Shown here: piece after piece, positions 36,001 to 42,000 of the stretch | Layout: each line of letters begins with the position of its first letter | How positions within the stretch are numbered: position 1 is the stretch's first letter | Source: Escherichia coli | Lineage (GTDB): Bacteria > Pseudomonadota > Gammaproteobacteria > Enterobacterales > Enterobacteriaceae | Reading direction: 5' to 3' (one strand) | NCBI RefSeq assembly: GCF_017348835.2 | Contig: NZ_CP071375.1 | Length of the DNA stretch: 64,000 nucleotides | Position numbers: made by a program

Positions 36001-39000
36001 GCATCTGAATCGATCACGGTTTGGCCAAACCGTGATCGAATAGAGAGGAATACGCACGTAATGATTAAATGCTTTTGTTACACCATTCTTCCGGCATGAA
36101 TATTTATCCAGTTCCCTTTTTTATTTGTGTAGTGATACTGTCGGAATAGCGTTCAGTAATGTGAAGTGTCCTGTTAAAAATCTTTAATAAATGTGTCACC
36201 CTGGTCAGGAAATATCTGCTGAGATATTATTAGTTGGTGGGTAAGCGTACAGCCTGAACCGTCTGGTCAGAATCTGACGAATTAGACAAAGTGGTGTCCA
36301 CCAAATAAGTAGTGGGAACCAAAGTATCAGATATGCAGAAAAATGTGACTCCCGGCAGGCGAAAAGGCTGCCCTAATTATCCTCCCGAATTTAAACAGCA
36401 GCTCGTTGCTGCCTCCTGTGAACCCGGGATATCCATCTCAAAACTTGCTCTTGAAAATGGCATTAACGCCAATCTGTTGTTCAAATGGCGACAACAATGG
36501 CGCGAGGGAAAGCTGCTATTACCTTCTTCAGAGAGCCCCCAGCTACTTCCTGTGACTCTCGATGCAGCTGCCGAACAGCCAGAATCGCTCGCAGAGGACC
36601 CGGAAACCCTCAGTATCAGCTGTGAGGTAACGTTCCGGCACGGGACGCTCCGCTTCAATGGCAATGTCAGCGAAAAGCTCCTGACTCTGCTGATACAGGA
36701 ACTGAAGCGATGATCCCGTTACCTTCCGGGACCAAAATTTGGCTGGTTGCCGGTATCACCGATATGAGAAATGGCTTCAACGGCCTGGCTGCGAAAGTAC
36801 AAACGGCGCTGAAAGACGATCCCATGTCCGGCCATGTTTTCATTTTCCGGGGCCGCAGCGGCAGTCAGGTTAAACTGCTGTGGTCCACCGGTGACGGACT
36901 GTGCCTCCTGACCAAACGGCTGGAGCGTGGGCGCTTCGCCTGGCCGTCAGCCCGTGATGGCAAAGTGTTCCTTACGCAGGCGCAGCTGGCGATGCTGCTG
37001 GAAGGTATCGACTGGCGACAGCCTAAGCGGCTGCTGACCTCCCTGACCATGCTGTAAATCTCTTTATCCTGGTTGTCACAGAATAAGCCCGGTAAAATAC
37101 GGGCTTATGAACGACATCTCTTCTGACGACATCTTCCTGCTGAAACAGCGCCTGGCCGAACAGGAAGCGCTGATCCACGCCCTGCAGGAAAAGCTGAGCA
37201 ACCGGGAGCGCGAAATAGACCATCTGCAGGCGCAGCTGGATAAACTCCGCCGGATGAACTTCGGCAGTCGTTCCGAAAAAGTCTCCCGCCGTATCGCACA
37301 AATGGAAGCCGATCTGAACCGGCTTCAGAAAGAGAGCGATACGCTGACTGGTAGGGTGTATGACCCGGCAGTACAGCGTCCGTTGCGTCAGACCCGCACC
37401 CGTAAGCCGTTCCCTGAATCACTACCCCGTGACGAAAAGCGACTGTTGCCTGCGGCGCCGTGCTGCCCGAACTGCGGCGGTTCACTGAGCTATCTGGGCG
37501 AGGATACCGCCGAACAGCTGGAGTTGATGCGTAGCGCCTTCCGGGTTATCCGGACGGTACGGGAAAAACATGCCTGTACTCAGTGCGATGCCATCGTGCA
37601 GGCACCTGCACCTTCGCGGCCCATCGAGCGGGGTATCGCCGGACCGGGGCTGCTGGCCCGCGTGCTGACCTCGAAGTATGCAGAGCACACCCCGCTGTAT
37701 CGCCAGTCAGAAATATACGGCCGGCAAGGTGTGGAGCTGAGGCGTTCACTGCTGTCGGGCTGGGTGGATGCATGCTGCCGGCTGCTGTCTCCGCTGGAAG
37801 AGGCGCTTCATGGCTATGTCATGACTGACGGCAAACTCCATGCCGATGATACCCCGGTCCAGGTACTGCTGCCGGGTAATAAGAAGACGAAGACCGGGCG
37901 GTTGTGGGCGTATGTTCGTGATGACCGCAATGCAGGGTCAGCGTTGGCACCTGCAGTGTGGTTCGCTTACAGCCCGGACAGAAAAGGCATCCATCCGCAG
38001 ACTCATCTTGCCTGCTTCAGCGGTGTGCTGCAAGCGGATGCGTACGCCGGGTTCAACGAGCTGTATCGCAATGGTGGGATAACGGAAGCTGCCTGCTGGG
38101 CTCATGCCCGCCGAAAGATCCACGATGTGCACGTCCGCATCCCGTCAGCACTGACGGAAGAAGCCCTGGAGCAGATCGGTCAGTTGTACGCCATAGAGGC
38201 GGATATAAGGGGAATGCCGGCAGAGCAGCGGCTTGCTGAACGTCAGCGAAAAACGAAACCGCTGTTGAAATCCCTGGAAAGCTGGTTGCGTGAAAAGATG
38301 AAGACCCTGTCGCGACACTCAGAGTTGGCGAAGGCGTTCGCGTACGCACTTAACCAGTGGCCGGCACTGACGTACTATGCGAACGATGGCTGGGTGGAAA
38401 TCGACAACAACATCGCTGAAAATGCCCTGCGGGCGGTCAGTCTGGGTCGTAAAAACTTCCTGTTCTTCGGCTCTGACCATGGTGGTGAGCGGGGAGCGCT
38501 ACTGTACAGCCTGATCGGGATGTGCAAACTGAATGACGTGGATCCAGAAAGCTACCTTCGCCATGTGCTTGGTGAACCGCCCCGGAAATCCTGGAGACTA
38601 AACTCCCTGAGAAAGAGGTAAACAGGATGACTAAAAATACTCGTTTTTCCCCCGAAGTCCGTCAGCGGGCGATTCGTATGGTTCTGGAAAGTCAGGATGA
38701 ATATGACTCACAATGGGCGACAATTTGTTCCATTGCTCCAAAGATTGGCTGTACGCCGGAGACTCTGCGTGTCTGGGTTCGCCAGCATGAGCGGGATACC
38801 GGGAGTGGTGATGGTGGACTCACCACCGCTGAACGTCAGCGTCTGAAAGAGCTGGAACGTGAAAATCGTGAACTGCGCCGCAGTAACGATATCCTTCGCC
38901 AGGCTTCCGCTTATTTTGCGAAGGCGGAGTTCGACCGCCTCTGGAAAAAATAATGCCACTGCTGGATAAGCTGCGTGAGCAGTACGGGGTCGGACCGGTA

Positions 39001-42000
39001 TGCAGCGAACTGCATATTGCCCCGTCAACGTATTACCATTGTCAGCAACAGCGACATCATCCGGATAAACGCAGTGCCCGTGCGCAGCACGATGACTGGC
39101 TGAAGAAAGAGATACAGCGCGTATACGATGAAAATCACCAGGTATACGGTGTGCGTAAAGTCTGGCGTCAGTTGTTACGGGAAGGTATCAGAGTGGCCAG
39201 ATGCACTGTGGCACGTCTCATGGCAGTTATGGGACTTGCCGGTGTTCTCCGGGGTAAAAAGGTCCGCACTACCGTCAGCCGGAAAGCCGTTGCCGCATGC
39301 GACCGCGTAAACCGTCAGTTCGTGGCAGAACGTCCAGACCAGTTGTGGGTGGCTGATTTTACCTGGGTAAGCACATGGCAGGGCTTCGTTTATGTGGCGT
39401 TCATCATTGATGTGTTCGCCGGATACATCGTGGGATGGCAGGTCTCATCATCCATGGAAACAACATTCGTGCTGGATGCACTGGAGCAGGCGTTGTGGGC
39501 CCGTCGGCCGTCCGGCACAATCCATCACAGTGATAAAGGTTCTCAGTATGTATCGCTGGCCTACACGCAGCGGCTTAAGGAAGCCGGATTACTGGCATCA
39601 ACAGGGAGTACTGGCGACTCGTATGACAACGCGATGGCGGAGAGCATCAATGGTCTTTACAAAGCGGAGGTAATACACCGTAAGAGCTGGAAAAACCGTG
39701 CAGAAGTGGAACTGGCCACACTCACGTGGGTGGACTGGTATAACAATCGACGATTGCTGGAAAGGCTGGGCCATACTCCCCCGGCAGAAGCAGAAAAAGC
39801 TTATTATGCTTCCATCGGAAACGATGATCTGGCAGCCTGAGTTCACAGATAAAACACTCTCCAGGAAACCCGGGGCGGTTCATGGCGTCATAGCAGACTG
39901 GCCGGTCAACCGGGTCAGCGAACTGCTTCCGTGGCGCATAGCACTGCCAGCTGAATAACACATCCCCGTCAATACGGCCCTCGCTGTACGCTTACGAAGT
40001 TAATACCGTTTTGTCTGTTTTTTTAACAAAGAAAATAATCCTGGAGTAGGTTCCCGGGCATTTGCCCGGGATGATTACTGTTTTAATGGATTATTAATCT
40101 TTGCATATTCAAATGGACTGATAAATCTTTCTCTGTTTGCATCCAGAAAATCGGCCCACCACTGTAGCATCAGTCGCCGTTCTTCCAGATGTTCTGCTTT
40201 ATGAATGTAAGCAGCACGTACACCGTTACGTTCCTGATGGCTCATCTGACGTTCAACTGCATCGCGGGACCACAAACCTGATTCTATTAACGCACTACAT
40301 GCCATCGCCCGGAATCCATGACCACAGACATCCTGGGTTGTGTCATACCCCATAACCCTCAGGGCTTTATTTACGGTGTTTTCACTGATTGGTTTACGTG
40401 GGTCATGTGCTCCCGTAAAGATCAGACCATTTTCACCAGCCCATGTCTGAAGTTCTGCCAGTATGGCTACAACCTGTTTGCTGAGTGGCACAAGATGTGG
40501 TGTTCGCATCTTGGATCCCCGGTGTGAGAATTTTACGCCTGGCAGAGGTTCGCGTTCGGCTGGAATAGTCCACATGGCATTGTCAATATCAATTTCAGAC
40601 CAGCGGGCGTATCTGAGTTCACTGGAACGAATAAAAACCAGTAAATTCAGCATAACGGCAAGCTGGGTGACAGGTTGCCCCTTGTAACTGCCAATACGCG
40701 ACAAAAGTTCAGGCAGGCGAGAAAGATCAAGAGCGGGGCGATGCTGGCGTTTTACCGTAGTCAATGCGCCAGCCATATCCAGAGCAGGATTATATCTGAT
40801 GATGCCAGACTGTACGGCATAACGCATTACGGCAGATATTCTTTGCTGCAGACGACTGGCGATTTCATAAATTTGTTTAGCTTCTGCAGCACGAACAGGG
40901 ATAAGCAGGTCCGGGGTATTGAGTGTTGTGATATCCCGATTGCCGATAAAGGGGAATACGTGTGTCTCGAGGCTTTTGAGTACTTTATCGCTGTGTGATT
41001 GTGCCCATTGTTTATTACTGGCATGCCAGCGTCGTGCAATATGTTCGAAAGAGAGTTGTAAATCAGGGACTACTTTTTTAGCTCTTTTCTGTTCGCAAGG
41101 GTCAACCCCCTCCGAAATCAGTTTTCGGGCCTCATCCCGTTTTGTACGAGCTTCGGAGAGAGATACTTCTGGATACACACCAAGTGCCAGAGTCTTCTCT
41201 TTACCCAGAATACGATAACGGAGACGCCAGTAACGGGAACCATTAGGATGTACCAGCAGGAACATGCCAGCCCCGTCAGTGAGTTTATAAGCCTTGTCAG
41301 TGGGCTTTGCAGCCCGGATTTTTGCGTCAGTCAGTGCCATAGTTCAGCCTTCTGAATGCGTTAAAGAGGGTACAAATTCTGTCGAACTGGGGTATGCCCG
41401 CAATTATACCCACACAATGAGGTTGATGTGGGGAGAATTTGGTTGAGTTCGGTAGAATTGATTTGGAGGAAGAACACTTAAATCATGGTGTTCTGAAACG
41501 AAAAACGGACCTCCGTGGAGGTCCGTTGATATGAATTTGGTGCCCGGACTCGGAATCGAACCAAGGACACGGGGATTTTCAATCCCCTGCTCTACCGACT
41601 GAGCTATCCGGGCAACGGGGCGCATTAAACCGTAATCTGCACATCTCGTCAACCTAATTTCAGTAAAAGCGATTCAACTGCTTAAGATTGCGGCAAATCG
41701 CTTCTTTTCTGTGTTTCTGTCAGGTCAATGCGCCACCCTGGCGGCAGCGGGCGAAGCGCAGGATATCTTCCGCCAGCCGATGTGCAGTGTCGACATCCGC
41801 CTGGCTACGATTCACCAGCATTCGGCTTAAACAGCCTTCCAGCACCAGTTCCATCTGCTTTGCTACCATCGCCGGATCGTCAACTTCCAGCGTGGTTAAC
41901 AGTTCGTGGGTGAAATCGTAAGCCGCGCTTTTTTGCTGATCGGCCAGTTGATGAATAGGGTGGCCAGGATCGGGATAAAACGTACAGGCAGCGATAAATA

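Follow-up and report, generated by a model that had tools for sequence, protein, structure and literature searches.

Elements of the IS66 family normally duplicate 8 bp of their target, and an intact copy that lacks this duplication raises the question of what has happened at its borders. In the present study, we analysed such a copy of ISEc8 in a window of 64,000 nucleotides of Escherichia coli DNA (contig NZ_CP071375.1), where it adjoins the integrase gene of a LEE pathogenicity island. The gene for this integrase, of the tyrosine type, lies immediately past the 3' end of a tRNA-Phe gene, as in other integrative islands at tRNA-Phe, and the neighbouring chromosomal genes dicD and dsbD mark the locus as pheU (Table 1). 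The flanks of the element read GTTGGTGG on the left and GAAGTTAA on the right, exactly as given in the first-pass annotation, and the missing duplication was confirmed. It is probably missing because the DNA on the left side was deleted or swapped in a rearrangement mediated by the IS.

Table 1. Features at the ISEc8 locus (positions within the window)
Feature	Position	Strand	Basis or remark
yeeP-like GTPase gene	34695..35606	-	Pfam MMR_HSR1; annotated; first gene of the decayed CP4-like module now abutting the IS
Left flank GTTGGTGG	36233..36240	.	End of yeeP-upstream intergenic sequence, CP4-like module
Composite: ISEc8 (IS66 family) with nested IS3-family element	36241..39995	+	Sequence read; RefSeq annotation of PE164
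ISEc8 left inverted repeat (IRL)	36241..36253	+	13-bp perfect core GTAAGCGTACAGC; imperfect matching further inward
ISEc8 tnpA	36333..36713	+	Pfam HTH_Tnp_1, E = 1.6e-12; also annotated
ISEc8 tnpB	36710..37057	+	Pfam TnpB_IS66, E = 1.2e-38
ISEc8 tnpC (DDE transposase)	37107..38621	+	Pfam DDE_Tnp_IS66, E = 2e-106; zf-IS66; LZ_Tnp_IS66
TGG, left copy of 3-bp target duplication of nested IS	38570..38572	.	
Nested IS629/IS1203-like IS3-family element, 1,310 bp	38573..39882	+	Sequence comparison; Pfam HTH_Tnp_1 and rve
Nested IS orfA	38627-38953	+	
Nested IS orfB	38953-39840	+	
TGG, right copy of 3-bp target duplication of nested IS	39883..39885	.	
ISEc8 right inverted repeat (IRR) core	39983..39995	+	GCTGTACGCTTAC
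Right flank GAAGTTAA	39996..40003	.	72-79 bp downstream of integrase stop codon
P4-type tyrosine integrase of the island	40075..41340	-	Pfam Arm-DNA-bind_3, Phage_int_M, Phage_integrase; annotated
tRNA-Phe (pheU), island attachment site	41538..41613	-	ARAGORN; flanking genes dicD, dsbD, cutA annotated

The element is a complete ISEc8 interrupted by a second IS. When the nested element and one TGG were removed in silico, exactly 2,442 bp remained, which is the full length of ISEc8 (3,755 bp in total, that is 2,442 + 1,310 + 3). This length compares with ~2.4-2.7 kb expected for the IS66 family, and the consecutive tnpA, tnpB and tnpC genes with IS66-type Pfam domains, the 13-bp perfect terminal repeat starting GTAAGCG and the 99.9% identity across 2,442 bp to the ISEc8 copy of plasmid pO157 agree with the same assignment; the 8-bp target-site duplication of the family was not found. 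The 3' end of tnpC has been replaced by the nested IS, giving a product of 504 aa against ~512 aa in intact copies (1,539 bp), and its C-terminal Pfam domain breaks off at position 25 of the 39-position profile, with a score under the cut-off. The nested element fits the IS629/IS1203 group of the IS3 family: its orfA and orfB encode HTH and rve (DDE) domains, its terminal repeats are of the TG...CA form and it is flanked by a 3-bp duplication. In the near-identical strain PE164, RefSeq annotates an ISEc8-family transposase for the composite element and a programmed frameshift in the identical nested copy. Among 5,426 complete genomes, the nested state occurs in PE164 alone. The insertion is a strain-specific marker of potential use in typing. 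The first-pass finding on this locus was silent on the composite nature of the element.

ISEc8 truly ends at the 13-bp perfect inverted repeat. These boundaries had been drawn by eye from the 13-bp match and they are correct: thousands of other ISEc8 copies align to identical end positions, and copies with the same first and last base have perfect 8-bp duplications, as at two independent sites, on plasmid pO157 (TGATAACA) and in the sil operon (TTCTGACG). The 8-bp duplication is thereby borne out as the norm for ISEc8, and since other copies carry it, its absence here reflects the history of this copy and not its identity. A simple insertion that lost its duplication to point mutations, or whose duplication was concealed by misdrawn boundaries, could appeal to the drawing by eye and to the three of eight flank positions that match, which is the level expected by chance. 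We consider it highly improbable and rejected it as refuted. The ends are validated by the 2,442-bp reconstruction and by the duplications at other copies; a check for a hidden duplication under refined boundaries revealed none, as shifts of up to 6 bp at either end never produced six or more matches out of eight; five substitutions in 8 bp would be needed, yet the flanks are 98-100% conserved against relatives; and the empty left site runs into sequence that is absent here.

Comparison across the 5,426 complete E. coli genomes showed an old and widespread right junction and a restricted left one. The right junction (IS end followed by GAAGTTAA) occurs in 644 genomes, in islands of the OI-122, afa-8 and LEE types; this number comes from a query spanning the junction, and a broader figure of 1,275 records took in empty sites. 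Its carriers include OI-122 of O157:H7 at pheV and the pheU island of O145, in both of which the integrase-adjacent ISEc8 is truncated on the left, an afa-8 island with just ~25 bp of the IS end left, and IAL7255, where a truncated IS3 forms the left side and the rest of the island is gone. At least five other left-side configurations are paired with this junction among the 644 genomes. The nearest uninterrupted version of the right site lies beside integrases that are only ~93-95% identical, with homology extending through AGTTAA, and the ancestral left neighbour was not recovered from these sites. The left junction (GTTGGTGG followed by the IS end, upstream of the yeeP-like GTPase gene) is present in 42 genomes. 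The comparison with relatives lacking the IS, which the first-pass annotation had proposed, located this left site intact in 1,811 genomes, where TTAGTTGGTGG is followed directly by TGCTTTTACTGAG and the sequence runs towards yfjI; the yfjI-side continuation is absent from the window. A search for LEE-linked islands in which the GTTGGTGG site is empty found none, and all islands with the LEE-proximal left flank stop at the IS.

Since the intact left site continues into sequence absent here, the stretch that once separated it from the IS has been lost. These comparisons show that the two flanks of ISEc8 were at no time neighbours, and they support the earlier proposal that the element took part in a subsequent rearrangement, by adjacent deletion or by recombination between two copies. 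Misassembly is a classic hazard at IS elements, and a collapse of repeats across IS copies could have joined unrelated flanks; however, the identical order of left flank, ISEc8 and right flank recurs in ~40 complete genomes that were sequenced independently and come from diverse serotypes and hosts, which makes such an artefact scarcely credible. The loss ends exactly at the IS terminus. Either recombination between two ISEc8 copies or intramolecular transposition would be its cause.

Our main reading, to which we give a probability of about 0.5, is that homologous recombination between two ISEc8 copies produced a hybrid IS with mismatched flanks. ISEc8 would have inserted long ago just downstream of a pheU/pheV-type integrase gene, creating the junction of IRR with GAAGTTAA. 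For the lineage leading to this LEE island, we infer that GTTGGTGG, upstream of the yeeP-like GTPase gene, carried a second ISEc8 oriented like the first, whether within the island itself or on a LEE-bearing element that came in. Recombination rather than transposition would then have joined the left flank of one copy to the right flank of the other in a single IS with no visible duplication, and the interval between the copies would have been removed or exchanged. Much later, and in this strain only, the IS629-like element would have inserted in the 3' end of tnpC. The lost segment can be modelled solely from a related island, the pheU island of O145 strain RM9872, which has an integrase protein identical to that of the window and a different variant of the yeeP-upstream region (94% identity). 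There, ~30 kb with effector, catabolic and regulatory genes separates the IS fragment from yeeP, namely espL2-nleB-nleE, a gentisate cluster, alpA and yfjI. A second ISEc8 at the left site would contain the k-mer CGCTTACGTTGGTGGTGCTTTTAC, and the ancestral left junction would read GAAGTTAAGTAAGCGTACAGCC. The parental two-copy state was absent from the 5,426 genomes, the reciprocal junction (IRR joined to GTTGGTGG with the yfjI-side continuation) was found in 0 of 5,426, and ISEc8 with GTTGGTGG as right flank or GAAGTTAA as left flank gave no exact match in the same set, the best being chance matches at six of eight positions. SNPs inside the IS gave no clear mosaic signal of a crossover, and one weak marker, T at position 2281, is common to two other integrase-adjacent copies.

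A related event in strain Z1323HEC0399 directly documents, as read from its sequence, two-copy recombination at the same resident IS. There, the integrase-adjacent ISEc8 and a second copy bracket an inversion of ~36 kb, and one 8-bp duplication, TCACAACC, is split between the two, flanking one ISEc8 on the left and the other on the right. The integrase-adjacent copy, now complete, received its left part from the second copy; as the left-truncated copy could not transpose, recombination must have been responsible. ISEc8 is multi-copy in these strains (median ~2 and up to ~20 ends per genome), so substrates for recombination exist.

The joint could also have arisen by intramolecular transposition, in which the left end of the resident ISEc8 attacked GTTGGTGG in the same molecule and the intervening DNA was excised. 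One IS would then remain, its right flank unchanged and its left flank new, and a second copy would never be required. We regard this route as plausible, though less likely than recombination. The endpoint exactly at the IS terminus beside an old right flank agrees with it, as does the failure to find the partner junction, and a single right junction with several left flanks, the truncated IS3 of IAL7255 among them, is what repeated one-ended events from a resident copy would give. On the other side, we know of no documented intramolecular deletion formation in the IS66 family, the transposition chemistry of which is, to our knowledge, poorly characterised; the only related case that could be dissected, Z1323HEC0399, involves a copy incapable of transposition; and the missing parental state, being transient, is weak evidence.

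Either way, an IS-mediated rearrangement of this kind is ordinary for such islands and of an already known type, and its significance beyond bookkeeping is small. It explains why only an IS separates the integrase from the CP4-like remnant in this LEE island, at the place where related pheU islands carry the ~30 kb with the effector genes, and it is an example of the repeated remodelling of tRNA-Phe pathogenicity islands by one resident IS copy. The integrase-adjacent ISEc8 end lies at exactly the same base in all 644 genomes, at both pheU and pheV, and the sequence to its left has been repeatedly replaced, inverted or deleted. That this end acts as a fixed recombination anchor, swapping cargo modules including the LEE between tRNA-Phe islands and maybe retained for integrase expression or island stability, is an idea that we consider unlikely. 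In the literature on ISEc8, on pheU and the LEE and on IS66-family duplications, we found nothing specific to this junction.

Compared with known systems, the window copy shares with ISEc8 its length after removal of the nested IS, the GTAAGCG... termini, the three ORFs and the Pfam domains, whereas it lacks the 8-bp duplication and has a tnpC truncated at the 3' end by the IS3-family element. The nested element has the 1,310 bp, the TGAACCGCCCCGG termini, the 3-bp duplication and the orfA/orfB pair with HTH and rve domains of IS629 and IS1203 of EHEC, but it is 95.8% identical to the IS1203 copy of O157:H7 and is an isoform, not the same element. With the OI-122 and LEE mosaic islands at pheU and pheV, the window shares the integrase, the integrase-side ISEc8 fragment and the tRNA-Phe sites; unlike them, it has no effector module (espL2, nleB, nleE), and its IS directly abuts the CP4-like remnant leading to the espF end of the LEE. 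For IS26 and IS1, and in O157 for IS629, hybrid IS copies with mismatched or split duplications are well described as products of IS-mediated deletions and inversions. Here too, a single IS has intact ends and flanks that are unrelated to each other, and the sister strain Z1323HEC0399, with its split duplication, provides the inversion counterpart; the difference is that the IS in the present case belongs to the IS66 family.

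Read from the sequence, the element at 36241-39995 has GTAAGCGTACAGC at its start and the exact reverse complement of this, GCTGTACGCTTAC, at its end. The span reaches 3,755 bp because two elements are held within it; after subtraction of the nested IS and one TGG, 2,442 bp are left. The C-terminal domain of tnpC ends at profile position 25 of 39, where it is cut by the nested element, which shows 95.8% identity to an IS1203 copy of O157:H7. The chromosome of the pig strain PE164 is almost identical to the window (2 mismatches in 43,755 bp), and in its record this region is labelled ISEc8 together with an IS3-family transposase. 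Among complete genomes, the IS629-like insertion in tnpC was matched without interruption in PE164 only; in F2_81, the closest relative, the same ISEc8 occupies this position without the insertion. The insertion is therefore a recent one that probably inactivates the ISEc8 transposase.

Features of the ISEc8 locus and the adjoining island (window coordinates)
Feature	Coordinates	Strand	Description
espF, then LEE			left of the decayed CP4-like genes
JAB', DUF987, cbeA', DUF5983'			decayed CP4-like genes, left of the yeeP-like gene
yeeP-like GTPase gene	34695-35606	-	left of IS
Left outer octamer	36233-36240		gttggtgg
ISEc8 tnpA			HTH_Tnp_1
ISEc8 tnpB			TnpB_IS66
ISEc8 tnpC			DDE_Tnp_IS66, zf-IS66, LZ_Tnp_IS66
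Nested IS3-family element	38573-39882		1,310 bp; TGAACCGCCCCGG... termini; TGG duplication either side
Nested element ORFs			orfA with HTH, orfB with rve
Right outer octamer	39996-40003		gaagttaa
Spacer			79 bp, between integrase and IS
P4-type integrase	40075-41340	-	left of tRNA-Phe
tRNA-Phe	41538-41613	-	rightmost in island order

The differing octamers outside the two ends were read as the first-pass annotation had given them. With the same first and last base, an ISEc8 copy on a pO157 plasmid is flanked by TGATAACA on each side and one in a sil operon by TTCTGACG on each side; thus, the end definition is correct and a simple ISEc8 insertion leaves an 8-bp duplication. At the window copy, 3 of 8 flank positions agree, no more than chance would give, and shifting the boundaries by up to 6 bp either side never gave a match of at least 6/8. 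The reported lack of a duplication is thereby borne out, also under refined boundaries.

The island that contains the IS is a LEE pathogenicity island with intimin beta, and its integration site is the tRNA-Phe gene pheU. A 137-bp repeat (window 41424-41560; 7314-7449 of L017, an O145 pheU island locus; 94% identity) covers the 3' part of tRNA-Phe and adjoining sequence; the L017 copy stands at the far end of that island, beside an integrase remnant. The repeat represents the att direct repeat of the island; the window stops short of the equivalent far end of the LEE island. The CP4-like module beside LEE (33200-34700) is heavily decayed: the cbeA, DUF5983 and JAB-domain genes are incomplete, and neither agn43 nor yeeR lies between the GTPase gene and the JAB remnant. 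These losses are additional deletions, separate from the ISEc8 joint. Inside espF, three tandem 141-bp repeats (32195-32617; 100/85/74% identity) correspond to its proline-rich repeat modules, and RefSeq calls espF frameshifted and incomplete on the PE164 record. Two inverted-repeat pairs (52167-52281 and 53466-53580; 60 nt at 83% and 44 nt at 95%) lie on either side of a segment of about 1.2 kb that includes yjeJ and look like REP/BIME-type palindromic units.

The two junctions of the IS were searched separately. An 80-nt query centred on the right inverted repeat (IRR) and the following GAAGTTAA was covered in 644 of 5,426 complete E. coli genomes, and the left sides of these ISEc8 copies differ widely. 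O157:H7 EDL933 (OI-122 at pheV) has only IS positions 1783-2442, beside another IS66-family element; O145 RM9872 (pheU) keeps positions 883-2442, cut by ISEc38; in IAL7255 a complete ISEc8 abuts a truncated IS3 and the remaining island is gone; and in Z1323HEC0399 a complete ISEc8 abuts a yeeR-like gene. In the afa-8 island of Rb-50 (L007, NZ_AP025682.1, 4001-4025), only the terminal 25 bp or so of the right end remain, as a remnant of this one ancient insertion. The nearest IS-free right sites have integrases merely ~93-95% identical, with homology running through ...AGTCAACACCG... Hence, the right junction is an old one that was already present in the ancestor of this integrase lineage, and the left junction is a later joint restricted to a lineage. 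The left-junction query (700 bp of left flank and 300 bp of IS) was spanned in only 42 genomes. In many others the left flank is matched to its last base and then continues without IS, as in strain GN02270, where ...TTAGTTGGTGG runs directly into TGCTTTTACTGAGTAATAGC... toward a yfjI-family gene; a query spanning this uninterrupted site was covered in 1,811 genomes, and the continuation TGCTTTTACTG... differs from the window sequence beyond the IS. The comparison with other genomes supports the earlier cautious suggestion of a later rearrangement by adjacent deletion or two-copy recombination.

In Rb-50, the remnant has the afa-8 adhesin genes on one side and the pheU integrase on the other. 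The IAL7255 locus (L009, NZ_CM130730.1, 4044-8787) is a pheV island reduced to integrase, ISEc8 and the truncated IS3, which abuts a truncated DUF4092 (sslE/yghJ-like) gene; this large IS-associated deletion reaches into the chromosome. At another pheV island position, NCTC9113 (L011, NZ_LR134311.1, 4001-6442) has a complete ISEc8, also without duplication (left flank ending ...CTTATCATTA, right beginning AGCGATAG...), probably another rearranged copy.

A deletion or exchange with its endpoint precisely at an intact IS terminus suggests that the IS itself was involved. We favour, at a probability of about 0.5, homologous recombination of the resident, integrase-adjacent ISEc8 with a second, directly oriented copy that would have stood at GTTGGTGG. 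Ranked second, as a possible though less probable route, is an intramolecular transposition in which the resident copy would have deleted the adjacent segment. The predicted parental junction, IRR followed by GTTGGTGG and TGCTTTTAC, was found in 0 genomes, and ISEc8 with right flank GTTGGTGG or with left flank GAAGTTAA had no exact match; this lends the one-copy route mild support, and only mild, since a two-copy parent would be transient. SNP patterns within the IS do not tell these routes apart. Two-copy recombination is ranked higher because of a precedent in Z1323HEC0399 (L018, NZ_CP148349.1), which supports it directly. There, two inversely oriented ISEc8 copies (1692-4133 and 40038-41597), one of them integrase-adjacent, enclose a pheU island segment of about 36 kb that is inverted relative to RM9872. 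The two octamers of the split 8-bp duplication TCACAACC stand to the left of the complete copy and to the right of the truncated one; therefore, one simple insertion into the yeeR-like gene was followed by recombination with the resident copy, and the latter, being left-truncated, could not transpose.

The missing segment may be modelled on the RM9872 pheU island, which has an identical integrase protein (WP_001218841.1) and the right junction of the window. Here, ~30 kb separates the IS fragment from yeeP, containing espL2, nleB, nleE, several IS, a gentisate-degradation cluster, zinc-ribbon and Gp2-family genes, hha, alpA and yfjI. This island is a structural model rather than the parent: its yeeP region is only 94% identical, and the final 250 bp leading up to the site are different. 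Among complete genomes, an empty GTTGGTGG site was not found in any LEE-linked island; the event is therefore older than the diversity sampled for this type of LEE island.

The sole mildly notable point is that the integrase-side junction stays constant in the genomes carrying it, at pheU and pheV and in three island types, and the other side is repeatedly remodelled. Overall, the finding is ordinary and nothing in it is new: ISEc8 and the nested element are each known IS, public genomes contain the locus in annotated form, and hybrid IS copies that lack matching duplications are a textbook signature of IS-mediated rearrangement.
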